A stretch of DNA of 64,000 nt from Bythopirellula sp. Lineage in GTDB: Bacteria; Planctomycetota; Planctomycetia; Pirellulales; Lacipirellulaceae. Positions 6,193-44,113 of this stretch are shown in pieces (the first letter of the stretch is position 1; every line of letters starts with the position of its first letter). The stretch lies in the NCBI GenBank assembly GCA_965216565.1, contig OZ244170.1:1376001-1440000 (forward strand), in the 5' to 3' direction. The translations under genes were made by a program, and so were the position numbers. The notes under the pieces are model-generated. The model searched no databases and was not told the origin of the DNA. It was given only the letters and a program-made list of their open reading frames with translations.

Positions 6193-6264
6193 CCGGTTTT
6201 CTCCTATTCTGGTGGTGAAGGCGAGGTTCTCGCCGAATAACTGACTGAATTAGGAGCAAATCGC

Positions 6265-6281
6265 ATACCACCCTGGGGTAT
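6265..6281. promoter_or_regulatory. CsoR-type operator upstream of csp-csoR
   Basis: ATACCACCCTGGGGTAT: 15-bp TACC-N7-GGTA pseudo-palindrome with C/G tracts. Confidence 0.8.
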
Positions 6282-6303
6282 TGTGCCATGCCGAGGGGAA
6301 AAT

Positions 6304-11269: not shown

Positions 11270-11291
11270 CGACGACCTCGAGGTTATGAGG
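11270..11291 (-). repeat. 22-bp exact repeat (copy 1) resembling tRNA-Met(CAU) anticodon loop to T-stem
   Basis: CGACGACCTCGAGGTTATGAGG is identical to 35445-35466; reverse complement is C-CTCATAA-CCTCG-AGGTC-GTCG. Confidence 0.85.
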
Positions 11292-11345
11292 AACCCCGCG
11301 AAAAATCGTTGAAACTACTGCATTTACTGCGTTAAACTCATCCTA

Positions 11346-11432
11346 GTACCCTCTTTGCGAGCTTGCAACCATTAGCAAGTTTTAGCATCGCTTAGCATCG
11401 ATTAGCAGATTTCAGACTGCCAAACAGGGTAC
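11346..11432. repeat. IR-bracketed TTAGCA array with 10-bp period
   Basis: TTAGCA at 11372, 11382, 11392 and 11402, flanked by GTACCCTCTTTG (11346) and CAAACAGGGTAC (11421). Confidence 0.85.
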
Positions 11433-11536
11433 CAAATCACCTGCACCAATCAGTCGACCAGAACAGTCGCGAAAGCAGGTGTTCAGAAAGAATGTCACCT
11501 TGAGTTTCCCGGTACTTTTGCACACGAGACCCTGGT

Positions 11537-12604
11537 ATGAGCGGATGGTTTTCCCCACTCTTATTCATCTTAGCTAGCTCTAAAGAAACCGATTTGCGAC
11601 GCCATATCGAGTTTCTACAAGCTGAGAACGAAATGCTACGCAAACGAGTGCCCAAACAGAAAATCTTTCTCGACGATGACGAACGAGAACGACTGGTGAA
11701 ATTGGGTGTAGCCATTGGTCCGGGCATTCTCAAGCTAATAAGTATCGTGCATCCACGAACATACCAACGGTGGATAGCCAAGAAAAGCCAAGGCAAGAAG
11801 CTCACAAAGAAAATGGGCCGTACCAAGACTATCGAATCCGTACGTGACCTAGTCATCAGAATTGCCAAGGAGACGGGTTGGGGATATGGCCGAATTGTCG
11901 GTGAATTGCACAAATTGCGAATTCGTTCGGTAGGCCGAACAACCGTGCGAACAATCCTCAAGGAAGAAGGCGTCAAACCGAGCCCGAAGCGTGGAAAAGG
12001 TACTTGGGACGAGTTTGTCAAAATTCACGCCGATACGCTTTGGCAGGTCGACTTCTTTTGCAAGAAAGTCGTAACCAGGCGAGGAATAAGACAAGCGTTC
12101 GCTTTAGCCTTTTTGCACGTGGACTCGCGGAGAGTAATTTGTTCTCCAGCGACCTATAAGCCAAATACTCCATGGATGGTCAAACAAGCCAAAGCGATGC
12201 TGAAGCAGGCCGATGAGGCAGACTTACGAATTCGCTACTTGGTGCGAGACCGCGATAATTGCTACACCAGCAAGTTTGATGAGGTCTTCGAAAAAGCAGA
12301 CGTTCTGATAGAACCTACCGCACCTAGGGCTCCCAACCAAAATGCATTCATAGAGCGTTGGATAGGTTCACTCAAATATGAGTGTTTGAATCGATTCATA
12401 GCATTTGGGTTGGAGCACCTCAATTACATCGTTTCGGAGTACGCATCGTTTTACAACGAAGTGCGACCTCATCAAAGAAAAGAGAATCGTCCGCTTACGG
12501 GAGAATGGCCGGTGCTCGACATTCCTCCTGAAAGTGAAGAAGATGTCGTTTGCAAAGAACGACTCGGGGGCGTCCTTCGTCACTATGAACGAATTGCGGC
12601 GTAA
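11537..12604 (+). CDS. Integrase-core (rve) DDE transposase/integrase with N-terminal HTH
   Basis: WGYGRIVGEL HTH; DDE triad in WQVDFF, LVRDRD and NAFIERW; YNEVRPHQ; RLGGVL.HY tail. Confidence 0.93.
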   Translation: MSGWFSPLLFILASSKETDLRRHIEFLQAENEMLRKRVPKQKIFLDDDERERLVKLGVAIGPGILKLISIVHPRTYQRWIAKKSQGKKLTKKMGRTKTIESVRDLVIRIAKETGWGYGRIVGELHKLRIRSVGRTTVRTILKEEGVKPSPKRGKGTWDEFVKIHADTLWQVDFFCKKVVTRRGIRQAFALAFLHVDSRRVICSPATYKPNTPWMVKQAKAMLKQADEADLRIRYLVRDRDNCYTSKFDEVFEKADVLIEPTAPRAPNQNAFIERWIGSLKYECLNRFIAFGLEHLNYIVSEYASFYNEVRPHQRKENRPLTGEWPVLDIPPESEEDVVCKERLGGVLRHYERIAA

Positions 12605-13174
12605 GACGGGTTTGAGCCGTATTCGGACAAAAAGTGCGTTCAGCCGATGAAGCTGACGCGTTGAAGCAAATCGCCAAAACCGCATCGGCCTAGTGCGGCT
12701 GAGCATTTTAGTGCCCATCGGTTCTACGGTACGTTGATGCAACCACTTTGAGTTTAGTGAACAGCGAAATGCAATCCACGGCGGCTAACGCACGCAGGAG
12801 CTGAACGCCTGAGATTCATTCAGTCCTCTATTTCCCTGCAACCGGCGAATAAATCGGTTTTTCGGCGGATAGTCCAACGCCGTGCAATTTGTTAATTATC
12901 GTTGGTGACGGAGGTATTTCCCGACTCCGGCAATAATTAATGACGCCAAAACGCAAGTATTCCCCAGGCATTGACTGCCAGCGTTCACCTCTAACGGGGT
13001 ATACCCGATTGGGGCTTCATCGCCCCGAACTCTGTTGCTAGTATAATAGCATTGTTACGCAGACAGGGTGCCATGGCGAATATTTGCTGGTCATCCTATT
13101 TTTGTGGTTTCGAAGACTAATCTTTGCCGATTACAAGAGTGAGTACTTTTAGTTTTACTTCAGACTGAATTGTC

Positions 13175-21673: not shown

Positions 21674-22093
21674 TCACGACTGCCTAGCAAGCCAGTCTAG
21701 CACCGCCTGCTCAATTATCTCCTGCTGTGACCACGGGGATTTTCCGGCAAGCTTACGTTCCAGCGAAGTTCGCCTTAGTCTGTCAGCTGTTGTCGGCTGA
21801 AATCTAGTAGTGATAGCGACCAGTGGCTGCGAAAGTGCATTTTCTGTTTGGCTAGCGGGACTTTTCTTTTTGGATGCTTTACCTAGCTGTGGAGTTTTTG
21901 GCTTTGCAGGCAGTTTCTCTACGCTGGCAACTGCGGGGGCACTTTCAGCGACTGGCTTCAATGCGGTGATTGATGGTGCCCCAGACTCTTCAGACAATTT
22001 GTGCCTTTGAGAATTCTTGCTAGGACGAACGAACTCTTCCACTTCTTCGGTGAAGACCAGTGCGGACGATAAACCTCTTCTTGATTTATCCAT
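21674..22093 (-). CDS. Small ParA partner (ParG/type Ib centromere-binding-like)
   Basis: Overlaps parA stop; low-complexity N-terminus and RHH-like C-terminus (AITTRF...SQQEIIEQAVLDWL). Confidence 0.7.
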   Translation of the reverse strand: MDKSRRGLSSALVFTEEVEEFVRPSKNSQRHKLSEESGAPSITALKPVAESAPAVASVEKLPAKPKTPQLGKASKKKSPASQTENALSQPLVAITTRFQPTTADRLRRTSLERKLAGKSPWSQQEIIEQAVLDWLARQS

Positions 22094-22751
22094 TGGCAAC
22101 TCTCTTTCTGGTGGTCGGTGCGACTACTGGTAGCAGGGCGAGAATTTCCTCAAACAGAGCTTGGGCGTCCTTGCCTGCTTCGGTTCCAACCATGCGAGTC
22201 ACCACGGTGGCTTGCTGAGCCGAATCTCGAAACGCTTCTAACTCCCTCACCTTTGCCTTGGCAACAGCAATGCCAAGTTGCTGGGCTACGGCGGGCAATT
22301 CACCACTGATTCTGCTGCGTCTTCTAATCTTGTTGCAGACGACAAGCCCTGCTGGTCTCCCGGCATTGATTCTCTGAGCTGTCTTGAGTGTCTTGGTGGC
22401 ATCGACTAGAGAACGTAGGTCGAGTATGGACGGACCAACCGGAAACACTGCCAGGTCAGCCAGCAGCATGAGCGTCCGCGAGGTCTCGTTAATATCTCCA
22501 GGTGAATCACAAATGACAAAGTCAGAGACCCGTTTGAGAGCAAGCAGTCTTTCGGCAGCCACGTCGGGGTCCGTTTCCTTTACGACTTGAATGCTTGGTT
22601 CCGTTTCTGAAACCCATACCGAGGAGGAGGCTTGGTTATCAGAATCGAGTAACGCCACCTTCCGGCCAAGGTCATGCAGGTAAATCGTCAGATGCGCCGA
22701 CAGTGTCGATTTCCCAACTCCCCCTTTTGTGTTCGCAAACAGAATTATCAT
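22086..22751 (-). CDS. parA: ParA partition ATPase (short, type Ib)
   Basis: Deviant Walker A KGGVGKST, LLDSDNQ, ICDSPG; no N-terminal HTH; likely start ATG 22751. Confidence 0.93.
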   Translation of the reverse strand: MIILFANTKGGVGKSTLSAHLTIYLHDLGRKVALLDSDNQASSSVWVSETEPSIQVVKETDPDVAAERLLALKRVSDFVICDSPGDINETSRTLMLLADLAVFPVGPSILDLRSLVDATKTLKTAQRINAGRPAGLVVCNKIRRRSRISGELPAVAQQLGIAVAKAKVRELEAFRDSAQQATVVTRMVGTEAGKDAQALFEEILALLPVVAPTTRKRVANG

Positions 22752-22805
22752 AGGGCGACGATATCGTGAATTCTCCGAAGCTGGCAAGTAGGTTTCTTTG
22801 CCTGT

Positions 22806-22846
22806 TTGCAACGTTGCAAGATTGCTTACAAGCAAGCTTGTAAGCA
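22806..22846. promoter_or_regulatory. Palindromes upstream of parA, candidate centromere/operator
   Basis: TTGCAACGTTGCAA (22806-22819) and perfect 11-bp arms TGCTTACAAGC-AA-GCTTGTAAGCA (22823-22846). Confidence 0.55.
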
Positions 22847-23172
22847 TTTGAAGGTAGACACTCCTCGGCCTTCGCCTCGGTCAGCACTTCCTGCGGGCTG
22901 ACTACCGTCAAATCACGACGAGGTTTACCGACACGAGCAAATTGTGCCACGAGATACCCAGAGGGTAGGTCCATGCCTTCCGACACTCAGAAGCGAAATA
23001 CGACGGCCTTGATTTCGGCAGGAGTTGGGCCTGGTTTGCCATATCCACTACCAACTTTGCGAGCCGGGGTCACTTGGCGAGCAACCCCACAGGCATCATT
23101 TCAAAAAAAATTCCTGCTCGACTGAAGTGAGGCTTGAGGTTCCGTGTTTTGGCCAAGGCTCCCCGATAAGCC

Positions 23173-23365
23173 GTTTAGAATTGTTTAGAGAATAGTTTAA
23201 GAGAGTTTACGGCTGGCAACTCGCTGAAGTGGCTGGGGAATCGGCGAGTTGGGTACCCTTATCCCACGTGACAGGGTACCGTATCCCCACGAACCGCGAG
23301 TACCTTGATACCCCGTGCGGTGGGTACCGTAATCCCACGCGGCAAAACTTTGTGCCTGTGGATAA
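23173..23365. other. Putative iteron replication origin (oriV)
   Basis: GTTTA x4 AT-rich tract (23173-23209); four 18-bp iterons at 23251, 23274, 23298 and 23322; perfect DnaA box TGTGGATAA (23357-23365); immediately downstream of repA. Confidence 0.8.
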
Positions 23366-23375
23366 CTTTTTGGTG

Positions 23376-24434
23376 TTAGCGAGCGGCGATAGGGTTACTC
23401 GCAGCGTGTTTTTTACAGAAGCCGATAAAGGCCGCCTCGGGAGACTCGAGTTTTGTTTGCCGCTTGGCATTGAACTCTTTCCACATCTCATGAAGAACAT
23501 AGACATCGTAGCCCCCAGAGACTTTCCTTGCCTTCTCAAAGGCATCTGTGGACAGACTCAGGAATTGCATTGCTTGCTGAGTCGGTGGAGCTGATGCGGC
23601 AGCCGTACTCAGCAGTTTCCCAACCTTCACCGCATGGATGTACTGCTGACGATTGGAAGTTTCCAAGGTGAGCTTGTAATCCAGCAAGATGCCTTGCTTA
23701 ACAATTTTTCGTATGTCTTCCGCAAATCTCTTGTAAGGCCTCAACGTACCCGAACGTTCATGCAGGGTGCGAAGGTTCCATCGCCAGCCCTTGGCGTTTG
23801 CACCTGCACTTTTTCTGAGGAGCCGATAGAGCCAGCGTGCGTAGCCACTTTGGAGGAGAAAGTAATCGGGATGCAGCGTCAGCACCATCTTTCGGTCACA
23901 AACGGCATCATAGAGCCATTCCGGCAGCACGACCGTAGCGGCAATAAAGTTTGCTTTCTCGTCCCGCTCGACGTTGGCGTACTCGAACCAATTGAACATC
24001 GTCATTGGACGACTAGTCGCTCTCAAGTTCGTGGTAATCGTCGTATTCTTGAGCCGAGCAATCGTTTTGACCAAGCGTTTGTACTCGTCTCCTCCAGTAT
24101 GCCTGCGGACCGCCTTAAGATACCCGTAGCGAGTGAAGCGGATTTTTCGGGAGACTTCTTGTCCCTTGTTGATTGCTTGACGCAGCTGAGACAATAGCCA
24201 GATTACCAAGTCATAGTCCCAGATATTGGCAATGCCGAAGGGCTCGCCTCCCGACACAATCACTTCCACGCCGTTAGGACTCGTGTACTCAATAGGTCTG
24301 AAACGTGGCTTCTTCGAGAGGCTCAAGAAAGGAAACTCCATCGTTTCGCGTGCATCTCGGGAAGCAATATCTGTGAAGATTGCGGAAAAGAGTTCTAGTT
24401 GAGCATCCTGAGGAGGTGGTTTACGAAGCGTCAT
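23376..24434 (-). CDS. repA: Plasmid replication initiator protein A (RPA family)
   Basis: MEFPFLSLSKKP, GIANIWDYDLVIW, LPEWLY, YFLL.SG..RWLYRL.RK; GGAG SD before ATG 24434. Confidence 0.9.
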   Translation of the reverse strand: MTLRKPPPQDAQLELFSAIFTDIASRDARETMEFPFLSLSKKPRFRPIEYTSPNGVEVIVSGGEPFGIANIWDYDLVIWLLSQLRQAINKGQEVSRKIRFTRYGYLKAVRRHTGGDEYKRLVKTIARLKNTTITTNLRATSRPMTMFNWFEYANVERDEKANFIAATVVLPEWLYDAVCDRKMVLTLHPDYFLLQSGYARWLYRLLRKSAGANAKGWRWNLRTLHERSGTLRPYKRFAEDIRKIVKQGILLDYKLTLETSNRQQYIHAVKVGKLLSTAAASAPPTQQAMQFLSLSTDAFEKARKVSGGYDVYVLHEMWKEFNAKRQTKLESPEAAFIGFCKKHAASNPIAAR

Positions 24435-24740
24435 ATCTCCGTGCATAGCACGTCTTGATATTCCGCGTCCACTATTTTCTACGGTCCTGAATAACCACAA
24501 CTCTGCGAATGCTCGAGTCTTCCTTCGTCGGCCTGTCATCGTCGGGGCTGCACCCACGGTCTGAGCCTCGACGATGATGGGACGTAAGAAGGAAGACGCT
24601 ACCGTCCGAACTCAACGCAGTCTCTGTGTTCTGGTTAGAACTTCCTTTGTTGGTCAGATTCAGAAGGGGTTTGTAAAAAAAAACTTGGAGCAGCAAGCTG
24701 CATCCAACTCAAGAAACGGGTTCCTCTTCTCTGTGTGTGC

Positions 24741-24770
24741 AAAAAAATGCGGGGCGATTTCTCGCCCCGC
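24741..24770 (-). terminator. Rho-independent terminator
   Basis: Minus strand reads GCGGGGCGA-GAAA-TCGCCCCGC-ATTTTTTT, just after the stop at 24794. Confidence 0.8.
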
Positions 24771-24793
24771 TGGGGTGGAGTACCCCGTTAGCC

Positions 24794-25060
24794 TTAGCTC
24801 TTCTTATCAGTTGCTGTTTGCTCGAACATCCAGGTTTGGGCAAGGTCAGCTACTTTGCCAAGGAGCAGCAAGTCGTCTCTTCCAAACGAATCACTTTCTC
24901 TCCAACCCTTGTCCTCTTTGGTACGCTTATCCTCCGCTAAGCGGTAAATGCGTGTGAGCACAGCGTTGTAGCGTTGTCCGTTCTGCGTGTCGTTGGCCCA
25001 GATGGTCGCCTTGATGGAGCCAAGTCGGATTTCGTGGGCTGGTTTTTTCTTGTCGTTCAT
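24794..25060 (-). CDS. Small conserved protein, putative PC4/Whirly-like ssDNA-binding (paralog of 54722)
   Basis: AGGAG SD; HEIRLGSIKATIW.N...W..S.SFGRDDL pattern shared with 54722-54988; fold assignment is inference. Confidence 0.8.
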   Translation of the reverse strand: MNDKKKPAHEIRLGSIKATIWANDTQNGQRYNAVLTRIYRLAEDKRTKEDKGWRESDSFGRDDLLLLGKVADLAQTWMFEQTATDKKS

Positions 25061-26649
25061 TTTGTTTTCTCCTTTGAGGTTTGGCGAAATTGCCTTTCAC
25101 AGAAACCAAGGCAATTGGCAGCAGAAACTCAAATGCAGGAGAAAGCGACCGAGTGAACGCCAACTGAAAAATCGCCTCGAAACTGACGTGCAACTCTTCA
25201 AGACATCTGGGCAAAGTGACATACGCCAGGGCCACGCACACTGTTTAACGCATTGGCTAGCCGGGGATGCTACTCAAGAGAATTAGGTCGGGAGAGAAAT
25301 GCCAGAGTTGGAGACGTCTTCATGCCTCCTGCAAGTAGCCGTAATGGCTCCCTGAAATTGGATTTCAAACAGTGTTTGCTTAGAAAGCTTCGAACGGGGT
25401 AATATCTGAGCCCTGCGGATGAAATAGACTGCCGCAATTGTTGGTATTCACTAAAACGTGAAACCACCTTTTGACGACGAACAGAGACGCGGTAAAGCTG
25501 GCTATCAACCAGCCTAAGCGTATTTGGGGTTCATCTCCCAAGGATTTTCTGTCGTTGGTAGAGCTGAGTGCATCGAAAGGTGCTCGCTCATGCTCGACGG
25601 TGGCTTGTTGAACTAATACCACTGCCTTTGTATGGCAGAGGAGTAATCTCAACATTCTAACCGATACGGCCATGCTCAGCATGGGCGAACAATAATGCGG
25701 GCGACACTGAAAGACTCTTGTTTGTTTTGTATTCAAATGAGAGCCGTCGTTCGAGAATTGGTGAGGCTTGGCGAGAGCCGAGCGCAATCCATCTGAGGGG
25801 AATGATGGGGTCACTGACCTCCTTTAACCTCAGCCGTCGCAGGGAGCTGCTCACTAGTGATAGTGAGTATCGGGGCAAGATTAGCCTCGGCGTTCTGGAG
25901 AAATGCCAGACGGTGAATAGCTCAACTGTAATAGGCTCGCAAGGGCTTGATGGTAAGTATAGAAAAAGTGCTTAGCCAAGAATGCTTGCTGCAGGCCGAT
26001 AGGCTGTCAGCAAGTGGCGAACAACCAAGTAAACGCAGTAAGTTCTCTTTGTGTGTTTTCGGAACTGAAAGCGAGCTGGTGTTATGAACCAGTTTGGTGA
26101 GTGGCATGGTGGGGACACCATGTACAGTTTACTTCTGGGGTTGCGACCCCATACGGTCTGCGTAAGCTAGCCAGCAGATTTTCTATGCAACTCGTTCGAC
26201 TAAAGTGGGAAGCTCTCTTGCTGCCGCTAGTGATGTAGCGGTGCGTTGTCTAGTCAACAACGTGTCAGAAACCGTCTCTCTTTGGAGTGCGGGCAAAGCA
26301 GGAGAGTGGGAGTGGGCTGCAAGTAGAAGAGCAATCAACACGGAGGAAACTCGGTGCGTGAGAGCTGCGGTGTTTTGGCTGGCAGTCAAGACCCGTTTCG
26401 GTTCTGGGGTGATGCCCAGAGCGGTAACGAACGACGAAAGCAGCGACCGACCAGTGGGGCTTGCCCCGAGGTCGTCAAAAGGTGATGGGCTAGGGTTTGG
26501 TTCACACCAGACCCTAGCCGCTGTGGTGGCGTGTTAGGCGGATAAAAAAGACGAGCTAGGGATAGCTTGTGTTTTTTGTCAGTGAAGAAACAAGGGAGAG
26601 GAGAGGTTCGCTTTGCGAACAAATCTTTTCCCTAATAAAATGAAATGCG

Positions 26650-26674
26650 TTCAGTGCAATAGAATTGCACTGAA
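26650..26674. promoter_or_regulatory. Perfect 11-3-11 palindrome, candidate operator
   Basis: TTCAGTGCAAT-AGA-ATTGCACTGAA, about 220 bp upstream of ORF 26892. Confidence 0.5.
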
Positions 26675-26891
26675 ACCAGTTGGAAATACACACGTTTGGC
26701 ACGAGGCCAAACGGTGATTTCTAAAGATGGAGGTTTCCGAAACACGGTTCCGGATGCACCGTGGTGAGGTTCGTTGCAGGATGCAACCAAAGGATTTATC
26801 GATTGACTTGAGCTTGTCACTAAACAGCTCTTCTTCACTTAAGCGGCAGCTCTTGGGTATTGGCTGACGCTCAATTGAGGAAAGCAAGGCA

Positions 26892-27629
26892 ATGAAAATC
26901 AATCCACACTACAAGTACGTGGCAACAACACGTACGGGCTTCGTGCAGCAGGTCGTTTGCAACTACGTTTGCAACGGCTATCGATTCCACGTCTCTGGAA
27001 AAGTCCCAGCAGGAAAGAATCCAACAGACGTCGATGAGAAGCTGCTCGACCGCTACTCGATACGCAAAACGGACGCTCAGCGTTACCGAGCCAAGCTCCG
27101 AGGGGAGGCTAACATTCAGTACATACGCTTTGAGCGTGATTGGCTGATGCTTGCTACCGAAGGGGAGCATCTATGGAAAAAACTCGAAGGAAAAAAAGAC
27201 AGCAAGGGTAAGAGCAACATCAAGAATTGCTCACGTGGGGAGCCCATCGAGTTTCAGGGCTATTCGATTTATCTCAAAAACGGTCTCTACAAACCGGTTC
27301 GCTGCAGGCGAGATAGAGCAGTGCATGAGCTGGACAATAAGAAGCGGGTGAGGGTGGTCATCGGTCGCGATGCCTTCAAAGACTTGAAGGCAGAGTTTAT
27401 GAGCCTGGCCAAGAAACGAAGTGCCAATTGGATAGCTGCCAAGTTCTGGCACGTGCCGTACGAGCCCTACGCTCCCATACGACAACAACTCTTGAAGATT
27501 CTCTTCTGCGTGAACCAAACACGGAAGAGTCACGGGATGCAAACGATTAGCACGAAAGTGATTCGATTCAAGCGAACAATTGTGAAACCGTTTGAGGAAT
27601 TGCCTGCTGAAAGTGAGGAAGCTGCTTAG
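26892..27629 (+). CDS. Basic hypothetical protein
   Basis: 245-aa ORF with GAGG upstream; K/R-rich with aromatic-rich conserved-looking blocks (GFVQQV..NY, PYEPYAPIRQQL). Confidence 0.8.
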   Translation: MKINPHYKYVATTRTGFVQQVVCNYVCNGYRFHVSGKVPAGKNPTDVDEKLLDRYSIRKTDAQRYRAKLRGEANIQYIRFERDWLMLATEGEHLWKKLEGKKDSKGKSNIKNCSRGEPIEFQGYSIYLKNGLYKPVRCRRDRAVHELDNKKRVRVVIGRDAFKDLKAEFMSLAKKRSANWIAAKFWHVPYEPYAPIRQQLLKILFCVNQTRKSHGMQTISTKVIRFKRTIVKPFEELPAESEEAA

Positions 27630-27662
27630 AGTGCAGCATCGCTGCTACACTCTCAAGACTTG

Positions 27663-28004
27663 TTAAGCAGCGGGTTGGTTTGCTGGGAACTCAATTTCTT
27701 CGGCAGTGTCGGATTGCTGGTCAAGCTCGGCTACACGAGTAGCAGCTTTGGCTACGCACTGCTCAAGTTGCTTGAGGTGCTTGGCGTAGAGCCTGGTTGA
27801 GTAGTTGAACTCAGGCTTGTCTCTGTCTGTGCCTGGCCGTGGGTAAGCTCGCTTCACCTCGGCATAGTGCGAAGAGCCTGAAGCGTTGTTAGTCACGTAA
27901 ATGTTGATGCCCGTTGCTCCTTCGCGGACGGTCTCAACGTACTTACTGTTCGTTTGTTTCTCAGTTTTTGCAGTGCTCTTAGAGCTGTTCGATGTGTCTT
28001 CCAT
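27663..28004 (-). CDS. Small protein, diverged member of the 24794/54722 family
   Basis: GGAGG SD before ATG 28004; same beta-beta-beta-helix pattern (VETVREG..GINIY...EVKRAY...L..L). Confidence 0.7.
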   Translation of the reverse strand: MEDTSNSSKSTAKTEKQTNSKYVETVREGATGINIYVTNNASGSSHYAEVKRAYPRPGTDRDKPEFNYSTRLYAKHLKQLEQCVAKAATRVAELDQQSDTAEEIEFPANQPAA

Positions 28005-28151
28005 GATATATACCTCCGTCATGATGTGCTGCGGAGTATACGACGAAGCGGAGTCTTACTCAAAAATTTCTCGAGCAGCCGCTTGCAGCGATTTAGGGAC
28101 TGAGTAGAGGAGAGGCCAAGGCGGCGTGCAGCAAAAGCCAAAAACCTCTCA

Positions 28152-28985
28152 CTAGGCGACCGGCACCTGGCCTGCCACCTTCACCTCTGCCAGCTCCGTC
28201 AATAACGACGCAGCCGTTTTCTGGATACGCTCCAGCGAGTCTTGCAGCTTCTCCCGGTCTCCCGAGTAAAGCTGAATATAGTCCGCAGAATGCTTGAGGG
28301 CATTCGCGAGCCCATGAGCCTTCGCAACGACATAGGATACTGCTTCGGCCTCTAGCTCCCTGACGACCTTGGAAGTCCGCTTACGGTCCTCGCCTTTGTG
28401 CAGTCCTTCATGGGCAACTTCGTGAGCTAGCACCGCAAACTCTTCCGCAGCTGCCATGCCCTTCAGAAGACAAATGGTGCCTCCTTGGGACAGACCTCTT
28501 GCACCATCAAGCTCTTCCTCATAGAGCAGCTCAATGCCACGCTTGCTTACAACTTCACGAAGCTGAGCAAGTGCTTCGCCGGGGTCACCACTAATGTGGT
28601 TGATTTCGGGTAGCTCGTCGCCTTCGGTCTGACTTACGTCAAAGACGTGAACTGCTCGGTAACCGAATAGTTCACGTTCATCGGAGTCGCCAGACTTCTC
28701 CGTTTGCTCATCCTGCTTCTTGCGGACCAGCGGAGCCAGAATGCAAATCCCTTTCTGGCCCTTCTTGACGGCTCGTCCACGCTTGAGCCAAGCTCGAAAT
28801 CCAGCCACTAGCGTGGCTTCGGGAAACTGTCGTGCGATAAGCATGCAGTTTCCAAACGAGTAGCTGTAAAAGCTACTCATCACATCCAGGTAGCTGGCGA
28901 GTTCGTCGCTCTTGCCTGCGGCCAGAGCTTCACCAAGTTCAGCGATTGCCGTCTCCGACAATGCTAGTGCGTCTTCTTTCTTCAT
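28152..28985 (-). CDS. ardC: ArdC-like anti-restriction protein (DUF1738 ssDNA-binding plus zincin-like HEXXH domain)
   Basis: YSFGNCMLI..Q.P.AT.VAGF..W...GR.VKKG, VFDVSQTEG, HEVAH, ELEAEAVSY. Confidence 0.85.
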   Translation of the reverse strand: MKKEDALALSETAIAELGEALAAGKSDELASYLDVMSSFYSYSFGNCMLIARQFPEATLVAGFRAWLKRGRAVKKGQKGICILAPLVRKKQDEQTEKSGDSDERELFGYRAVHVFDVSQTEGDELPEINHISGDPGEALAQLREVVSKRGIELLYEEELDGARGLSQGGTICLLKGMAAAEEFAVLAHEVAHEGLHKGEDRKRTSKVVRELEAEAVSYVVAKAHGLANALKHSADYIQLYSGDREKLQDSLERIQKTAASLLTELAEVKVAGQVPVA

Positions 28986-29552
28986 CACAAACCCCTTTCT
29001 CCTTCGTGAGAAGGAAACGTAGTTAGACAACCCTCGAAATGCTGCACGCCGCTTGCCTCGTGCAGAAGTTCAATAACTTCTCCACGAGGGAGCGACGAGG
29101 GGTGTCCAAACCCACGAATGGGTGGAGCTTGTGTGCGGCGAGAATACCACGAGTGATAGGCCTAAGATAATTTTCTGCGAAGTCTGCAACTGGGGTTCAG
29201 AACAGATAGTTCCGCGTAGTCACTCTGAGAGATTCTCTCTCAGCGGGCAGCATCAATGAGCTCGGCTACTTGGAACCACAGTGGAGACGAAGCGTTAAGG
29301 AGCGAGGGTCTTGAGGCAGAGCCAAAATATTCCAAGAGGAAGCAAGACCCGAACCAAAACTGCAAACACTACCGAGCGAGAGTGTCGCTTATGAAGCCGC
29401 TGAGCGGCTTGCTCAATTGGGCTTGCTTGGTGGCTGTTGCTGTGTTGCATTCGGCCAGTTTGCCACGATTTGAGGTGCTACTCAAATCGTGGAATGGCAA
29501 GACCTAGAACCGGAGTTTTACTTGCACTTCGGCTAATTGGAGATACTTGGCG

Positions 29553-32500
29553 TTATGCAACGTCTTCGTCACGAATCTGTCCGTATACTCGCTCTCGTAG
29601 ATGCTGCTTAACCAGCTCCTGGAAAGCTGGGTCATTCATATACTTAGCAAACAGCTCTTCGTTCTGCTCCATCCGGTCAATGAAGAAGTTCTCCAACGCT
29701 TTATCGAACACATATCGGAAGTTGTCGAGTGTGTTGGCCTTGGCAGCTTCGCGGATTTCCTCGTCGTTGACCGCTTCTTCCTGAATCTGATTGAAAAATA
29801 ACTCGTCGGCTTTGGTGAAGTCGGTTCCAAAGCGTTCGTTTACCAATCCGATGAGTGTCGAAAGTTCCACTTTTGGGCTTTCAGACAGACTCGTGCCAAC
29901 GGCGGTAGGGCCGCCAATTTCACCGCCTTTACCCTTGTCGAGTTCGATGCTTCCGTCACTGATTTTCTGAAGGCGGTAGAACTTCAGAGTGACTTCGTCG
30001 TCGAACTGATAGCGTGGTCCCGCCTCACGTCGCGGCAACTTTGAGAGCAGAAAGCGTGCGTAAGCGTAAAGCTTCTCTAGGTCAGAATCCTGAAAAGGGA
30101 TGACTTGTGACAGAAACGCATACAGATTGCGAAACGCCCCGAGCAAGCCCCGAAATTCTTCTTGATGCTCCTCGTCAAGTGCTTTGAAGCGTGTCACGGC
30201 GGGGTCGAGCGTCGCTTGCAGCTTGGCATGGTCTGCCTTGCTCTGTACTGCCTTAGCCTGGAAGAATACTTTGCAAAACGCCTCAACGTCACTCTCATGG
30301 ATAACGTGTTGCTCTTCTATCTTCGCTTGCAGCTCGTAAAGTTGATGCGGGTCGGCTTCCTCGCCAATGTCGGTCCGCTCATAATAAGGCTGAAACGCCT
30401 CGAAGATTTCTTCACGTGAATTGACGAAGTCAAGAACGAACGTGTCTTCCTTGCCACTACAAGTCCGATTGAGCCGCGAGAGTGTCTGAACGGCTTGAAT
30501 TCCGGCTAGCCGCTTATCGACGTACATCGAGTGCAAGAGCGGCTGGTCAAAGCCCGTTTGATACTTCTCAGCAACGATGAGCAGTTGAAACTCTGGTGTA
30601 GCAAACTTCTCCGGGAGTTGCTTTTCCTTGATTGGCTTTCCCGTTTCGGGGTCGGGGTTCATCTCGGGTTCGGTATATGTCTTGCCTGAAATATCGGGGT
30701 CTTCGACGGTCCCAGAAAACGCCACCAAGGTGCGAATGTCACCGTAGCCCTTCTCGGCTATTTGCTTGTCGAATTCTTGCTTGTAGCGAACTGCGTGTAA
30801 GCGTGAACTAGTCACAACCATCGCTTTGGCACGGCCACCAATCTTGTGTCGCGTGTGGGCTCGAAAGTGCTCTAGCATCACTTCGGTCTTCTGAGCGATG
30901 TTGTGTGGATGCAGGCTCATAAAACGGGCTAACGCCTGAGCCGCTTTCCGTTTGTCAACTTCGGGGTCCTCCTCGATGCTCTTCAGCAGTCGATAATAAG
31001 TTTTGTAAGCAGTGTAGTTTGCCAGGACGTCGTGGATAAATCCTTCTTCAATCGCCTGCCGCATGCTGTAGAGGTGGAATGGCTTAGGCTTGCCGTTCCC
31101 ATCTCGACCGCCGAAGACTTCAAGGGTCTTGTACTTCGGCGTCGCTGTGAATGCGAAGAAGCTGATATTTGGCTGTTGACCACGCTTGGCCATCGTGCGG
31201 AGTATCTCTTCTTCGTAATCGTTGAGTCCTTTTTCTTCCGCCTCGACCCGAGCCTTCTCGCGAATCTGCTCTGCCGCGAGCACCGCTTTTAGCTCCGTCG
31301 CCGTTTCACCTGACGCCGAGCTATGTGCTTCGTCAATGATGACGGCGTATTTGCGGTCCTTCTGCGAAGACAGCTTTTCGGTGACAAACGGGAAAGTCTG
31401 TATCGTGACGATGATGATAGGCGTGCCTGCTTCTAGTGCAGTAGCGAGCTGAGCCGATTTGTGGCTCTCGTCGATTTTCTGAACGACGCCTTGCTTGTGC
31501 TCTAGCTGATAAATGGTGTCCTGCAGCTGACGGTCGAGCACCACCCGGTCGGTTACCACAATAACCGAGTCGTAAACCTTGGTGTCCTTTGCGTCGTGCA
31601 GACTAGCGAGCCGATGAGCTAGCCAGCCGATGCTGTTGCTTTTGCCACTACCAGCGGAATGCTGCACGAGATAGTTGTTGCCCGGACCTCTTTCTTTGGC
31701 GTCCGCTTCAAGCTTCGTCACCGCGTCCAACTGGTGGTAACGCGGGAATATCATCGTTTCCTTGCGGACCTTCTTACCACCGACTTTCGTCTCTTTGACT
31801 TCGAGAAAGACGAAACGGGCGAATATGTCGAGCCAAGCATCGCGTTGCCAGACTCCTCGCCATAGGTACTCCGTTTTGTAGCCTTCTGGATTGTCTGGAT
31901 TGCCCGCACCTAATCCGTCGCCACGATTGAGTGGCAGGAAGAATGTCCTCTTGCCGTCGAGCTTCGTCGTCATCGCTACCTGGTCGGTGTCGACTGCAAA
32001 ATGGACGACGGAACGCTGCTTGAAAGCAAAAATCTTCTCTTTCGGGTCACGGTCTTCTCGATACTGCCGCTTCGCGTGCTCGATGTTCTGCCCAGAGTTC
32101 TGGTTCTTTAGTTCCGCAGTCGCTATTGGCAGGCCGTTAAGCACAATTGCCAAGTCGAGCGACTTGCCCGGTTCGGCGTCACTAAAATGCAACTGTCGAA
32201 CAGCGGATAGCTGATTCGCTTCGTATAGCCTCTGCGTCTCGGGATTCATCGCATGGGCAGGGGCAAAGAAAGCCATGTGCAGACGTTTGCCGTAGCACTT
32301 GAAGCCATGGCGAAGTACGGCGAGCAATCCTTGCGAATCGAGCGAACGACACAAGTCGTCAAGCACGATACGTTCAACTTCTTCGCCATGAAGGTTTTCT
32401 AGCCCACTCCATACCTCTGGCTGTGTCGCACGCAGAAAGTCGGTGACCACCTTCGGCCAAATTGCTCGCTTGGCGTCAAACCCTTCGGGGTGCTCTTCGT

Positions 32501-32594
32501 CAAGCTGATGTCCATCGCCGGATGAATAGCCATTGTCGAGCAGGTGCTGCTCGATGGCGTCTTCAAATCGGATTTCGCGATGGTCGATTGGCAT
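29553..32594 (-). CDS. hsdR: Type I restriction enzyme R subunit
   Basis: Nuclease D..LNGLP...ELK; QHSAGSGKS, IIDEAH, FTATP, TGFDQP, QTLSRLNR. Confidence 0.95.
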   Translation of the reverse strand: MPIDHREIRFEDAIEQHLLDNGYSSGDGHQLDEEHPEGFDAKRAIWPKVVTDFLRATQPEVWSGLENLHGEEVERIVLDDLCRSLDSQGLLAVLRHGFKCYGKRLHMAFFAPAHAMNPETQRLYEANQLSAVRQLHFSDAEPGKSLDLAIVLNGLPIATAELKNQNSGQNIEHAKRQYREDRDPKEKIFAFKQRSVVHFAVDTDQVAMTTKLDGKRTFFLPLNRGDGLGAGNPDNPEGYKTEYLWRGVWQRDAWLDIFARFVFLEVKETKVGGKKVRKETMIFPRYHQLDAVTKLEADAKERGPGNNYLVQHSAGSGKSNSIGWLAHRLASLHDAKDTKVYDSVIVVTDRVVLDRQLQDTIYQLEHKQGVVQKIDESHKSAQLATALEAGTPIIIVTIQTFPFVTEKLSSQKDRKYAVIIDEAHSSASGETATELKAVLAAEQIREKARVEAEEKGLNDYEEEILRTMAKRGQQPNISFFAFTATPKYKTLEVFGGRDGNGKPKPFHLYSMRQAIEEGFIHDVLANYTAYKTYYRLLKSIEEDPEVDKRKAAQALARFMSLHPHNIAQKTEVMLEHFRAHTRHKIGGRAKAMVVTSSRLHAVRYKQEFDKQIAEKGYGDIRTLVAFSGTVEDPDISGKTYTEPEMNPDPETGKPIKEKQLPEKFATPEFQLLIVAEKYQTGFDQPLLHSMYVDKRLAGIQAVQTLSRLNRTCSGKEDTFVLDFVNSREEIFEAFQPYYERTDIGEEADPHQLYELQAKIEEQHVIHESDVEAFCKVFFQAKAVQSKADHAKLQATLDPAVTRFKALDEEHQEEFRGLLGAFRNLYAFLSQVIPFQDSDLEKLYAYARFLLSKLPRREAGPRYQFDDEVTLKFYRLQKISDGSIELDKGKGGEIGGPTAVGTSLSESPKVELSTLIGLVNERFGTDFTKADELFFNQIQEEAVNDEEIREAAKANTLDNFRYVFDKALENFFIDRMEQNEELFAKYMNDPAFQELVKQHLRERVYGQIRDEDVA

Positions 32595-35116: not shown

Positions 35117-35444
35117 TAGGTATTCCTCACATCAATTTTGCCCGTCACCGCTGCTGAGATTAGGGCGGAACGGTATTCGTTAAGTCTAGACATTGCCAAT
35201 TCGACCGCTCTGTTGGCCTCGTCGAGTATTCTGCAGCGAGCATCCACGTCCTTCACGATTGACGACTGCTCATCAATTGGCGGGGCCATCATCATCCAGC
35301 TTTTAATGTGAGACTGCGATACTTTGACCATGGAATTACTTGTGCCTCGAGCGTCGGCTTCGATTTGCCTTCTTCCAAAACGGCTAATCAGGCACAAACA
35401 GGCGTAGGTTCGTTGCAGTCGCACCTCATCCAAATGAACGCGGT
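35116..35444 (-). pseudogene. hsdS: 3' remnant of type I specificity subunit
   Basis: PPIDEQ..I...D and L.EYRSALISAAVTGKIDVR HsdS C-terminus; homology ends at the 22-bp element end; stop overlaps TIR start (TAATG). Confidence 0.88.
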
Positions 35445-35466
35445 CGACGACCTCGAGGTTATGAGG
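35445..35466 (-). repeat. 22-bp exact repeat (copy 2), tRNA-Met(CAU)-like fragment
   Basis: CGACGACCTCGAGGTTATGAGG is identical to 11270-11291. Confidence 0.85.
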
Positions 35467-35519
35467 CTAGCACCCTGAGATCCATAACTGCTTAATCTGC
35501 CAGGACTTGCGAAGTGTAC

Positions 35520-35594
35520 TTCCCCCTTTAGAGTCGTGCAAGTCTTAGCATTGTTTGTCAAGTTTTGGCATTTCTTGCAAAGCCAAAGGGGGAA
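35520..35594. repeat. IR-bracketed array with 10-bp period
   Basis: CGTGCA, TTAGCA, TTGTCA and TTGGCA at 35535, 35545, 35555 and 35565, between TTCCCCCTTT (35520) and AAAGGGGGAA (35585). Confidence 0.75.
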
Positions 35595-35707
35595 CTCTTC
35601 TGCTGCTTGAATGAACCAGCAGATCCGAGAGAATGAGGACCAACTCTAGGGGTTCGGGAAGGTTGTCACCCCTGATTCTCCGCGTCTTACTATCGGAAGG
35701 CCTCGTG

Positions 35708-36772
35708 ATGTCGAGCTGGTTTTCTCCTCTACTATTTCTGCTCGCCGGCTCCAACGAGCAACAGCTTCGCCGGCAAATCGAGTTTCTCAAAGCAGAGAAT
35801 GAGATACTCCGTAAGCACGTCCCAAAGCAACGAATCTTCCTCACTATAGAAGAGCGAGAACGGCTGCTGAAATTAGGGGATGCGGTCGGCAAAGGTGTGC
35901 TCCAGCTCATTAGTATCGTCAGCCCTCGAACTTACCAGAGGTGGCAACGACGGGTAAGCCAAGGTCAGAGACCGGCAAAGAAGATGGGCCGCAAAGGAAC
36001 GCCGGAGTCGATACGCGAAATCGTCGTCCGCTTGGCCAGAGAGACTGGATGGGGTTACGGACGGATAGTCGGGGAGCTGAAAAAGCTGCGTATTCAATGT
36101 GTTGGACGCACGACGGTACGAACCATACTGAAAGAAGAAGGTATCCACCCTGGCCCAAAACGAGGCAAAGGGACTTGGGATGAGTTCTTAAAGATCCATG
36201 CTGAGACGCTCTGGCAGGTCGATTTCTTCAGCAAGCCCGTGATTACGACGAGCGGTATCAAGCAAGCGTTTGTGATGGCGTTTCTGCACATCAACTCCCG
36301 TCGAGTCATCTGCTCGCCAGCCACGTTCAAGGCAGATGATGATTGGGTCGTTGCACAAGCGAAGTCGTTTTTGCATGAAGCGAAGAAACTCGACTTGCCA
36401 ATTCATCATTTAGTTCGCGACAAAGACTTCAAATACAGCAACCGCTTTGATGAAGCGTTTGAGTCTGCGGATGTCGCCGTGCAGCCAACCGTCCCTCGTG
36501 CTCCTAATCAGAATGCATTCATTGAACGCTGGATTGGCTCAATCAAGGGCGAATGCCTGAATCGCTTCTTCGCTATTGGGCTAAATCACCTTGACTATCT
36601 CGTCTCCGAGTACACGCGATACTATAACGAACTGAGACCCCATCAGCGGAAAGAAAACAAGCCCTTGCTAGGCTTATGGAAAGACAATAATGATCCACCT
36701 GATGAACCCAATCAAGTCGCCTGCCTTGAGCGACTTGGGGGTGTTCTCAAATGCTATGAACGAGTCGCCTAA
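35708..36772 (+). CDS. Integrase-core (rve) DDE transposase/integrase, paralog of 11537
   Basis: Start ATG 35708 by alignment with copy 1 (43 of first 60 aa identical); WQVDFF, LVRDKD, NAFIERW. Confidence 0.93.
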   Translation: MSSWFSPLLFLLAGSNEQQLRRQIEFLKAENEILRKHVPKQRIFLTIEERERLLKLGDAVGKGVLQLISIVSPRTYQRWQRRVSQGQRPAKKMGRKGTPESIREIVVRLARETGWGYGRIVGELKKLRIQCVGRTTVRTILKEEGIHPGPKRGKGTWDEFLKIHAETLWQVDFFSKPVITTSGIKQAFVMAFLHINSRRVICSPATFKADDDWVVAQAKSFLHEAKKLDLPIHHLVRDKDFKYSNRFDEAFESADVAVQPTVPRAPNQNAFIERWIGSIKGECLNRFFAIGLNHLDYLVSEYTRYYNELRPHQRKENKPLLGLWKDNNDPPDEPNQVACLERLGGVLKCYERVA

Positions 36773-39071: not shown

Positions 39072-39309
39072 GGCGTTGCAACTCCGATAGCAGATTCTAA
39101 TTCCAGCTGCCTTTGGGTTAGCTAATTTATCTATTTCACCATCCACACGATGCGTTGTCCTCGACAGCAACATAGCTTCGAGTGCAACGACACTGAGTAT
39201 TGAGCAAGTGTTCGCTGCCGATGAAATCCTAAGTCAATTGAACGTTTCTGGACAAAAGTCGTCTAAACCCGAGCGAGCACCTAAGGTTGACCCCACCGAG
39301 CTGTTTGGG

Positions 39310-44075: not shown

Positions 44076-44113
44076 TCGATTATCTGTTCTAGGTAATGGT
44101 TGTGCAGGAAGTG

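Follow-up and report, generated by a model that had tools for sequence, protein, structure and literature searches.

A 21-bp tRNA-fMet segment at the joints of a probable tandem island array in Bythopirellula, and the DDE insertion sequence beside it

Two copies of a 22-mer, each followed by a gene for an rve-type DDE transposase, occur in a stretch of 64,000 nucleotides from Bythopirellula sp., referred to here as the window. The reading that we favor with moderate confidence is that islands were stacked at the tRNA-fMet gene by a tyrosine integrase and that the rve protein is the transposase of an insertion sequence (IS) resident at the island end. The 21-bp sequences contained in the two 22-mers would be copies of the att core at the joints of tandem ICE-derived integrative islands, and the tyrosine integrase would have stacked these islands at one tRNA(CAT) gene, the only one of the initiator type in the genome. 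The rve protein would then be a resident of the island end, and the tRNA sequence would be read by another enzyme. The overall layout is ordinary, with one puzzling detail, namely joints that cut genes at the edge of the core. The features of the window are listed in Table 1.

Table 1. Features of the window; positions are counted from its first nucleotide.
Feature	Position	Strand	Description
Core A	11270..11290	+	21 bp, reverse complement of host tRNA-fMet 32-52; joint of unit 1 (left) and unit 2 (right)
Arm A	11291..11475	+	Inverted-repeat arms 11346-11368/11410-11432 around phased hexamers; candidate arm-type protein-binding array
Left inverted repeat, IS-like element A	11476..11499	+	CAGGTGTTCAGAAAGAATGTCACC; holds TGTCACC at 11493-11499
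rve A	11537..12604	+	355-aa DDE transposase; rve_3 domain, weak HTH_32 match
Candidate right inverted repeat A	12801..12811	+	Weak; CTGAACGCCTG, 10/11 complementary to 11476-11486
Unit 2 backbone and defence cargo	22089..32594	-	ICE/plasmid-type; Pfam scan
ParA (unit 2)	22089-22847	-	
RepA, PF10134 (unit 2)	23379-24557	-	
ArdC-N (unit 2)	28155-29030	-	
HsdR (unit 2)	29556-32594	-	
HsdS C-terminal remnant	35119..35463	-	Type I restriction specificity; open frame enters core B
Core B	35445..35465	+	Same 21 bp as core A; joint of unit 2 and unit 3
Arm B	35466..35648	+	Inverted repeats 35520-35529/35585-35594 around phased hexamers
Left inverted repeat, IS-like element B	35649..35672	+	GGGGTTCGGGAAGGTTGTCACCCC; holds TGTCACC at 35664-35670
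rve B	35708..36772	+	354-aa DDE transposase
Candidate right inverted repeat B	36835..36850	+	Weak; low score

Results

The 22-mer and the host tRNA gene

The 22-mer CGACGACCTCGAGGTTATGAGG occurs on the + strand of the window at 11270-11291 and 35445-35466 with 0 mismatches, and it starts 267 and 263 bp before the ATGs of rve A and rve B, as the initial annotation had described. No further copy was found in the window at up to 3 mismatches, and shuffled sequences gave a match in 0 of 100 cases; in the whole 5.2-Mb genome, the exact copies are these two. The DNA to the left of the 22-mer does not align between A and B, and the DNA from the 22-mer to about −60 aligns poorly, which agrees with the earlier remark that the upstream regions mostly do not align. 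In contigs from four runs of one sample, in which rare excised or rearranged forms would not appear, both 22-mers lie within a single piece of 53,340 bp and no alternative joint was seen; therefore, the two-copy arrangement is not an assembly artefact.

The 22-mer had been thought to derive from a tRNA-Met, and the comparison with the host tRNA genes confirmed this. Its reverse complement matches at 21 of 22 bases the host tRNA(CAT) gene at genome positions 1513700-1513774 (− strand), about 102 kb to the right, which is the only one in the genome that we take, from its sequence, to be of the initiator type. The matched stretch covers tRNA positions 32-52, beginning in the anticodon loop and extending four bases into the T stem. 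Base 11291 (G) is common to copies A and B and is absent from the tRNA, and both 21-bp cores correspond to tRNA 32-52, that is, both copies break at the same base of the T stem, as had been noticed. The core would consist of the crossover segment in the anticodon loop and one half-site of the integrase. A tRNA primer site of the LTR type (PBS) was also considered and was rejected, as no Pfam reverse-transcriptase domain was found among the window proteins scanned.

The array at the tRNA-fMet gene

Four copies of the core, all in the same orientation, are located at genome positions 1371764, 1387270, 1411445 and 1513727. The intact tRNA gene anchors one end of the array and a displaced 3′ part of the tRNA closes the other. 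This displaced part, 15.5 kb leftward of core A, is 50 nt long (1371737-1371786) and matches tRNA positions 26-75 at 96%. A gene for a PF00589 tyrosine integrase of 464 aa (1512293-1513687, − strand) lies directly downstream of the intact tRNA, and its product is 48% identical over 421 aa to a Botrimarina hoheduenensis protein in the corresponding place. Because the four copies share one orientation, they point to a tandem island array at tRNA-fMet and not to insertions at secondary sites. The initial annotation had allowed for secondary sites, and its two copies turn out to be internal joints of this one array; its suggestion that the tRNA-like sequence is the terminus of a larger island directed at a tRNA gene is borne out.

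Read in the orientation of the rve genes, the array starts with the native flank followed by tRNA 76-53, a core and unit 1. It continues through core A, unit 2, core B and unit 3, and its right end consists of unit 3, the tyrosine integrase, tRNA 76-53, a core and tRNA 31-1, the last three making up the intact gene. As shown in Table 1, unit 2 carries an ICE/plasmid-type backbone and defence cargo, and the Pfam scan found no recombinase other than rve A between cores A and B. The dehydrogenase in the left flank is not adjacent to the right-flank gene in relatives and may be a paralogue. The glycosyltransferase adjoining the integrase was not found across 15 genomes of the same genus, which supports its being an accessory gene.

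The module consisting of the 21-bp core, an arm of about 190 bp with phased TTAGCA repeats, and the IS recurs in five related genomes. With up to 2 mismatches allowed, each of these genomes contains 5-14 cores, and the reversed control pattern gave 0. Exact cores lie mostly in one orientation there, in arrays of about 64 kb to at least 220 kb. Of the 10 fetched loci in which tRNA 76-53 precedes the core, 8 have an integrase homologue (L094 and L027 are the exceptions); the remaining fetched loci gave none. In the annotated Botrimarina array, the integrase, the TrwC relaxase and the coupling protein occur solely in the tRNA-proximal unit, and an rve gene stands at the far end of each of the five units.

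The arm and its phased repeats

The 190 bp next to the core would be the arm of the att site, with the phased TTAGCA repeats fixed at 100-130 bp from the core start. In arm A, TTAGCA occurs four times with a 10-bp phase, starting at 11372, 11382, 11392 and 11402 (span 11372-11407); in arm B, the hexamers TTAGCA/TTGTCA/TTGGCA are located at 35545, 35555 and 35565 (span 35545-35570). The inverted-repeat arms begin 76 (A) and 75 (B) bp after the start of the 22-mer. The bracketed array that had been reported was thus located in both copies, and a core followed by a phased arm array corresponds, as had been pointed out, to the layout of a tyrosine-integrase att site.

Four phased exact TTAGCA hexamers occur once in the genome, and a looser motif with at least three phased copies gives three runs genome-wide, two of which are leaders A and B. 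Among the 16 units that have two or more sites, the hexamers lie 100-132 bp from the core start in 11. The density of hexamers is 12.9 sites per kb in the arm compared to about 1 per kb in the ORF. No inverted copy of the phased array, as would serve as a right end, was found in the genome. The comparison of leader divergence with protein divergence was uninformative, with the identity measure at its shuffled baseline (0.72-0.77).

The rve genes and their insertion sequence

The rve A and rve B proteins are 68% identical overall, and a recount on the translations returned the 43 identical residues of the first 60 given earlier for these diverged copies. D172, D238 and E273 are invariant columns, and rve_3 scores above its cut-off, with HTH_32 matching weakly. 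The best NCBIfam models are those of IS481 and IS3, where NF033577 (IS481; cut-off 224 bits) gives scores of 92.2 and 104 bits, and NF033516 (IS3; cut-off 160 bits) gives 85 bits. In the plasmid collection, relatives were found at about 30-37% identity at most, under the name "integrase core domain-containing protein".

The rve genes sit inside an IS481/IS3-like insertion sequence with its own inverted repeats. The motif TGTCACC, noted earlier as lying exactly 44 bp before the ATG in both genes, falls within the left inverted repeat, and a homologous repeat motif is present at about −60 throughout the rve family. The inverted repeats begin about 187 bp inside the core and about 60 bp before the ATG, and the rve module is therefore not tipped by the tRNA fragment as the initial annotation had proposed. 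The repeats flank rve at about −60 and at 150 to 240 bp past the stop codon, and about 21 of the 39-45 inspected elements show them clearly; an example from relatives is TGTACAAAAAGATTGC, at −59 and at 170 to 240 bp past the stop codon. The right end of element A in the window is probably decayed. Inspection of the flanks of the IS repeats gave no consistent duplication.

Two other interpretations of these ends were set aside. For a tRNA origin of the IS repeats, the similarity to any host tRNA was no better than that of shuffled sequence. As for a simple IS with the 22-mer at its ends, no partner of the core turned up when inverted repeats were searched for around the two copies. In a separate 9-mer screen, matches to inverted core pieces downstream were at chance level, except for a full inverted core in locus L023.

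Among 26 rve copies with at least 60% identity, 17 have the fMet core 230-320 bp upstream. Other relatives of the transposase have pieces of Leu, Ser, Lys or Asn tRNAs in place of fMet. A tRNA match was found in 31 of 69 rve upstream regions compared to 3 of 63 control regions, and it is always antisense to rve. Leaders were never seen without the IS; the 6 units that lack rve are either deletion derivatives or divergent past the arm. The mini-units L103 (2.07 kb) and L020 (2.45 kb) were candidates for rve-only elements and were rejected, as both have integrase remnants inside. L031 and L041 (tRNA-Asn, about 1.7-1.9 kb) have no integrase nearby, with PF00589 in 0 of the 15 ORFs of L031 scanned, and may be deletion derivatives.

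The IS would have been located past the arm since before the divergence of these island lineages. Such persistence counts against the favored reading, because a mere passenger is not expected to last so long. Alternatively, the rve protein could have been domesticated, for example as a directionality or regulatory factor of the island that binds the arm repeats, with transposition lost. The constant att-distal position across genera and tRNA targets, the intact ORFs in decayed units, the presence in this genome of just two diverged rve copies and one fragment, and the weak right inverted repeats of the window copies are consistent with domestication. However, the catalytic D, D and E columns are invariant and many relatives keep strong inverted repeats. 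In addition, the homology upstream of the copies begins in some genomes only at the left inverted repeat, which fits an IS that moves independently of the arm. We regard domestication as quite improbable, and a resident IS transposase is still the reading that we prefer.

Joints that cut genes at the core edge

Among 36 joints outside the tRNA gene, 29 lack tRNA 76-53, including both joints of the window, and in these 29 the outer edge of the core meets unrelated DNA to the base, often in truncated genes. An open frame of at least 150 codons runs up to the core in 10 of the 21 cut joints examined, and Pfam domains are cut at the joint in four cases. The example in the window is the HsdS remnant, which matches residues 353-422 of the 464 of EcoKI HsdS (E 9.6e-8). 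The frame of this remnant stays open into core B, so that unit 2 ends on the right in a cut gene. Conservation is lacking in the bases immediately inside the core, which is the expected place of the second half-site.

With serial integration by a tyrosine integrase, each internal joint should contain tRNA 76-53, and deletions at random should not share an endpoint at one base; therefore, a second activity is needed to account for the cut joints. A DDE enzyme or the nick of a relaxase may be involved. The co-option of an att site by a DDE enzyme, which the initial annotation had suggested, may still be part of the explanation. The joints that cut genes at the core edge are left unexplained by tyrosine recombination.

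In its most direct form, the rve DDE enzyme would act at the outer core edge, the 21-bp tRNA-identical block would be the outer end of a transposon, and the phased repeats and the repeat at −60 would be inner binding sites. One-ended or intramolecular transposition would join this edge to arbitrary DNA and delete the integrase side of an older island. The cut joints look like a transposon end in that the edge is sharp and the flanking genes are arbitrary and often truncated, and nearly all cut edges have an intact rve gene at a distance of 230-320 bp. The arm hexamers (TTAGCA/TTGTCA) resemble the inner IS repeat (GGTTGTCAC) and have a strong strand bias, and locus L023 has an inverted second core (18/21) 3 kb downstream. 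Deletions that start at or near the other IS end are also common, because the homology between copies ends at the stop codon or at the right repeat.

However, the core begins with CG, unlike the TG tip of the IS repeats of the Asn clade, a tip that is, to our knowledge, general to rve-type elements. A downstream inverted partner of the core or the array is absent in 15 of 16 units and, in this genome, genome-wide. No target duplication surrounds the segment from core to right repeat, and the missing halves of the cut genes are not found across the joint. The similarity between the core and the IS repeat reaches only 9-10 of 21 bases in a hand alignment. Furthermore, close relatives (60-65% identity) bear cores from different tRNAs, for which site choice by an integrase is the better fit. 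We consider a transposon end at the core edge unlikely, albeit with some chance of being correct.

A combined proposal, slightly more doubtful in our judgment, is that the core serves both as the integrase half-site and as the outer end for the IS481-like transposase. Through binding to the phased arm repeats and cleavage at the core edge, this transposase would fuse the end of its own island to arbitrary positions in the older neighbor and delete the integrase and transfer genes of that neighbor. If this is true, a DDE enzyme has been recruited by integrative elements to disarm competitors at the same tRNA, building arrays of defence islands in the process.

The relaxase alternative places the nick site of the island's transfer origin (oriT) at the outer core edge, so that transfer would lead with the core, arm, rve and anti-restriction genes. 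Transfers aborted early would circularise without the integrase and relaxase end, which is transferred last, and a resident integrase would insert such circles at existing cores. The left end of the resulting units would be fixed, and their right end would fall at random and cut genes. The cut units retain the rve end and cargo (ArdC in two cases) and never the integrase, relaxase or coupling protein, and the inverted and direct repeats of the arm are oriT-like. MOBF plasmids place oriT between the relaxase side and the ArdC side, and in the circular form of the island the att/arm region would fall between the TrwC-integrase side and the ArdC side. On the other hand, the nick would have to fall precisely where the half-site of the integrase ends, in fMet as well as in Leu cores. 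No relaxase was detected by Pfam in the units of this genome, unit 3 included, and closure independent of sequence is an assumption of this scenario. The chance that a transfer origin accounts for the joints is slim, and integrase-driven stacking with a resident IS is the reading carried forward here.

Discussion

Island arrays at tRNA genes are where many bacteria hold defence, resistance and stress genes. The arrays described here form one such family in Pirellulales (Planctomycetota), with three fixed parts, the tRNA core, the phased arm and the DDE insertion sequence. Joints of one reproducible type, in which the core edge is fused to the base with truncated neighbor genes, were also found, and these are outside the standard integrase models. 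In the part of the literature consulted, nothing was found on a DDE or IS481 element linked to tRNA att sites in Planctomycetes. If a second enzyme, a DDE transposase or a relaxase, makes these joints, they represent a new way for mobile elements to remodel or disarm each other and offer a practical criterion by which the limits of decayed islands can be set in these genomes. If no second enzyme is involved, the array is a well-described case of island accretion at tRNA-fMet with a long-resident IS.

Comparison with known systems

An IS110-type bridge-RNA element would have a DEDD/Tnp recombinase and a leader with a structured guide RNA. The enzyme is here an rve DDE protein, and no Rfam family reached its gathering score in the window. 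The IS481/IS3 family is closer. Its members share with the present element a single ORF of about 355 aa, an N-terminal HTH, an rve DD(35)E core and a length of about 1.3-1.4 kb, and the terminal inverted repeats begin with TGT in the Asn-type relatives. Unlike IS481, the element scores 92-104 bits against the family cut-off of 224, its copies are few and diverged instead of multiple and identical, and it is found almost exclusively beside tRNA-derived att cores.

ICEs of the TnGBS/ICE6013 type use a DDE transposase in place of an integrase and have inverted-repeat ends, target duplications and no tRNA-identical core. They resemble the present array in that a large island carrying conjugation-type genes has a DDE enzyme at its end. 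In contrast, the present array includes a tyrosine integrase, and its units end in direct repeats of a tRNA segment.

Tn7-like tRNA-homing transposons have an rve-type enzyme, a 5-bp duplication and phased binding sites at their ends. The rve-type enzyme, the orientation-specific insertion at the tRNA side, the arrays of defence cargo, and the several phased end sites are similar in the present case. However, a TnsC-like ATPase, TniQ/TnsD and TnsA are absent beside rve (Pfam, 64 window and left-flank proteins), the rve protein is half the size of TnsB, and what is repeated between units is a tRNA segment of 21 bp and not a 5-bp duplication.

Islands and ICEs that are inserted in tRNA genes by tyrosine integrases, and their tandem accretion, are familiar from surveys of the Islander/TIGER type and from the accretion and mobilisation of ICE/CIME arrays. 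The present array is like them in its intact tRNA with an adjoining integrase, its displaced 3′ tRNA fragment at the far end, its internal direct core repeats in one orientation, its defence and resistance cargo, and a core that starts from the anticodon loop. It differs from them in that tRNA identity is limited to 21 bp at most internal joints, which cut neighbor genes at the core edge, and in that the units carry the same DDE insertion sequence just past the arm.

The tRNA-fMet Segment and the Island Array

The initial annotation had identified the 22-mer as a fragment of tRNA-Met, and the host genome confirms this: the reverse complement of 21 of its 22 bases, a stretch that begins in the anticodon loop and ends at the fourth T-stem base, occurs in a tRNA(CAT) gene, which we take from its sequence to be of the initiator type. 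ARAGORN gave 48 tRNA genes in the genome, three of them with the anticodon CAT. The only exact copies of the 22-mer in the whole genome of 5,211,746 bp are the two in the window, each a 21-bp tRNA-identical core (core A and core B) plus one extra base; no further match with up to three mismatches was found in the window, nor in 100 shuffles. In contigs from four runs of one sample, both copies lie on a single piece of 53,340 bp, and no alternative joints were found.

The intact tRNA-fMet gene, located about 102 kb rightward of core B, has a tyrosine recombinase gene directly downstream, as listed in the table. Left of core A, at a distance of 15.5 kb, lies a displaced tRNA fragment of 50 nt, matching tRNA positions 26–75 at 96%, and the two cores, the intact gene and the displaced fragment all have the same orientation. 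This arrangement is the standard picture of island stacking at a tRNA gene, in which the native 3' fragment would be displaced to the far end of the array and the gene restored by the nearest element. All 26 genomes searched, including that of the window, have the gene that flanks the tRNA on its other side, and the glycosyltransferase adjoining the integrase was not found in 15 genomes of the genus, which is compatible with an accessory array next to a core flank. Several draft genomes of the genus have a contig that ends within about 0.1–2 kb of the conserved gene flanking tRNA-fMet, as is expected if repeated island arrays break assemblies. In another species of the genus, integrase residues 1–88 and the flank up to the tRNA 3' part (locus L093) are 99% identical to those of the window's genome (L005), which suggests that one element may have been transferred recently between the two species.

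The best-supported account, which we consider reasonably probable, is that tyrosine-integrase islands form an array at tRNA-fMet and that their units have in common an IS481-like element, an old resident located immediately past the att arm.

Positions of the features in the window, on the contig (genome) and at loci of related genomes or of the window's own genome
Feature	Position	Strand	Remarks
22-mer, core A	window 11270-11291
22-mer, core B	window 35445-35466
Left inverted repeat, copy A	window 11476-11499
Left inverted repeat, copy B	window 35649-35672
rve A	window 11537-12604
rve B	window 35708-36772
HsdS C-terminal end	window 35119-35463	minus	frame continues into core B
Large defence-type genes, unit 3	window 36819-50518	minus	row of genes
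AAA_13 protein	within window 36819-50518	minus	785 aa
AAA_27/SMC-like protein	within window 36819-50518	minus	1172 aa, with metallophosphatase
DUF4011-helicase-MTES_1575 nuclease protein	within window 36819-50518	minus	2134 aa
Xer-like tyrosine recombinase	window 55211-56236	minus	342 aa; XerD model 113 bits, below cut-off
tRNA(CAT), intact	genome 1513700-1513774	minus
Tyrosine recombinase gene	genome 1512293-1513687	same as tRNA	464 aa, PF00589
Displaced tRNA fragment	genome 1371737-1371786
Third rve fragment (L006)	genome 1321887-1322144		outside window
tRNA cluster	L009:713-2083		15 genes in 1.4 kb
MscS-type channels	L003:10685-14209; L108:629-4117
GroEL/GroES pair	L109:1083-2654; L005:1190-1513
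Inverted core copy	L023:6299-6319		18/21
tRNA-Asn-type elements	L031:4470-4600, 6260-6400; L041:4760-4805
Near-identical integrase end	L093 (G005:C2 ~4696583); L005:13600-13722

Contents of the Units

In unit 1, left of core A, there are copper and efflux genes. The 24.2-kb unit 2 spans the DNA between cores A and B and contains rve A, metal efflux genes, ParA, RepA (PF10134), ArdC-N, HsdR, DUF4411/M78 and a TIR protein. Unit 3 opens with rve B, together with large defence-type ATPases; further right come the Xer-like recombinase, which adjoins a DNA methylase, and also methylases, ParA/ParB, stress genes and a weak match to a coupling protein, with the integrase at the end. Two large MscS-type channel paralogues lie between the conjugation-type genes and the integrase, and the same stretch holds the GroEL/GroES pair, CorA, MgtE, TerC and glutathione synthetase; its contents resemble stress cargo, and it may be island DNA in whole or in part.

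The Arm and the Insertion Sequence

The rve A and rve B proteins, both DDE transposases, are 68% identical. Between the two copies, DNA similarity is absent left of the 22-mer, patchy from there to about 60 bp ahead of the ATG, and absent again past the stop codons. The earlier observations that TGTCACC lies 44 bp before the ATG in both copies, and that hexamers in 10-bp phase are bracketed by inverted-repeat arms starting 76 and 75 bp from the first base of the 22-mer, were both borne out. TTAGCA-type hexamers occur 100, 110, 120 and 130 bp from the core start; of 16 fMet-type units, 11 contain two or more of these hexamers and 14 contain one or more at 100–111 bp. The strand bias is strong: within 3.9 kb, 51 hexamers are on the plus strand versus 8 on the minus strand, and ORFs hold about 1 per kb. 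Core and repeats are a fixed distance apart and the sequence between them has diverged, from which we infer that the arm (about 190 bp) contains candidate arm-type sites of an att site.

The rve gene is enclosed in an insertion sequence of its own. Around −60 there is a motif common to the whole rve family, and many elements have its inverted partner 150–240 bp past the stop codon. In the Asn-type loci, for example, both ends carry TGTACAAAAAGATTGC, and L013, L018 and L023 have AAGGTTGTCAC/GTGACAACCTT; in the window copies, the left repeats are clear and the right repeats weak. The upstream homology between copies within a genome begins only at the left inverted repeat in two pairs (L036/L064 and L042/L043), and in other genomes it spans arm and gene and ends at the stop codon. 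Deletions frequently start on the right side of the IS. One unit of 2.07 kb (L103) consists of core, arm, IS and the first ~160 integrase codons.

The catalytic D, D and E columns do not vary, and 35 residues separate the second D from the E. The best NCBIfam models for the window proteins are IS481 (92–104 bits, cut-off 224) and IS3 (85 bits, cut-off 160), and because these scores are below the cut-offs, the rve element is apparently an uncatalogued lineage of the IS481/IS3 superfamily. NCBI naming models and plasmid records give the protein a generic name only.

Small elements of about 1.7–1.9 kb, consisting of arm, IS and a tail of 45–270 bp, lie directly downstream of the tRNA-Asn gene in L031 and L041; they have a common 45-nt terminal segment and repeated GGTTAAC and TTCGTA motifs, and no integrase was seen near them. 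In L023, an inverted core copy lies 3 kb downstream of the direct core and 37 bp beyond the right IS repeat, and in the stretch between, the last ~30 rve codons are duplicated, flanking an inserted 427-aa ORF.

The Module in Related Genomes

The rve family comprises 442 proteins at E ≤ 1e-10, mostly from Planctomycetota, and 79 loci were fetched from species genomes. The module is conserved far outside the window's genome: among copies at these loci with at least 60% identity, the same 21-bp core lies 230–320 bp upstream in 17 of 26 and is not at that distance in the remainder, one of which has it 1.7 kb upstream. Five related genomes have 5, 5, 8, 10 and 14 cores with up to two mismatches (reversed control pattern, 0); their exact cores are mostly in one orientation, in arrays of about 64 kb to at least 220 kb.

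In Botrimarina hoheduenensis, the tRNA-proximal unit encodes an integrase, 48% identical to the tRNA-adjacent integrase of the window's genome, together with a TrwC relaxase, a coupling protein, BREX and ArdC, and has rve and core at its far end. Four further units each consist of core, arm, rve and cargo, and no recombinase besides rve was found in these four. One Botrimarina unit (L090) has an AAA_27 and helicase-nuclease pair resembling that of unit 3.

Relatives of the transposase have, in the corresponding position and likewise antisense, pieces of other tRNAs, namely Leu(CAA) 30–54, Ser(CGA) 27–46, Lys(CTT) and Asn. Host-type tRNA matches occur in 31 of 69 rve upstream regions and in 3 of 63 control regions, where two of the three are real tRNA genes downstream. 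The island array of a related genome also has a tRNA cluster (L009) about 3 kb upstream of a core and rve module, which is a tRNA array carried within the island. The third rve fragment of the window's genome covers residues ~235–320 and is 59% identical to copy A; no tRNA-fMet core was found near it.

Two Kinds of Joint

At seven non-tRNA joints and at the intact tRNAs, tRNA positions 76–53 precede the core, and an integrase homologue adjoins in 8 of 10 loci, as serial integration predicts. At 29 of the 36 non-tRNA joints, unrelated DNA precedes the core and no base of 76–53 remains. An open frame of at least 150 codons reaches the core at 10 of the 21 cut joints examined, and Pfam domains are cut in four cases: Sigma54 AAA (1–118 of 168), GDPD (1–112 of 244), dCache (from profile position 99) and an IS3-type rve fragment. 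We read the sequence of one mini-unit (L007) as ending in a putative IS3-type orfA.

Serial tyrosine integration cannot make the cut joints, nor can pseudo-site recombination with an anticodon-loop crossover. Random deletions were rejected as a source, as they would not all stop at one base. No units with a partial core were met among close relatives.

The initial annotation had proposed, as one of two options, that a DDE enzyme uses the tRNA piece as its end. This reading was not retained as the main account, and stands only as an unlikely candidate for the activity that produces the cut joints. The core edge is transposon-like, intact rve genes are nearby, and the arm repeats are similar to the IS repeat; however, the dinucleotide at the core tip is not the one usual for rve-type elements, no inverted partner of the core was found downstream in 15 of 16 units, no duplications were seen, and close relatives have different tRNA cores. 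Domestication of the transposase and a relaxase nick with interrupted transfer both appear quite improbable, the latter slightly more so.

Within the part of the full-text literature that was accessible, no description was found of a constant coupling between island arrays and IS481-type elements in Pirellulales or of base-exact cut joints. Each component is already known separately, both the stacking of islands at tRNA genes and elements of the IS481 type.
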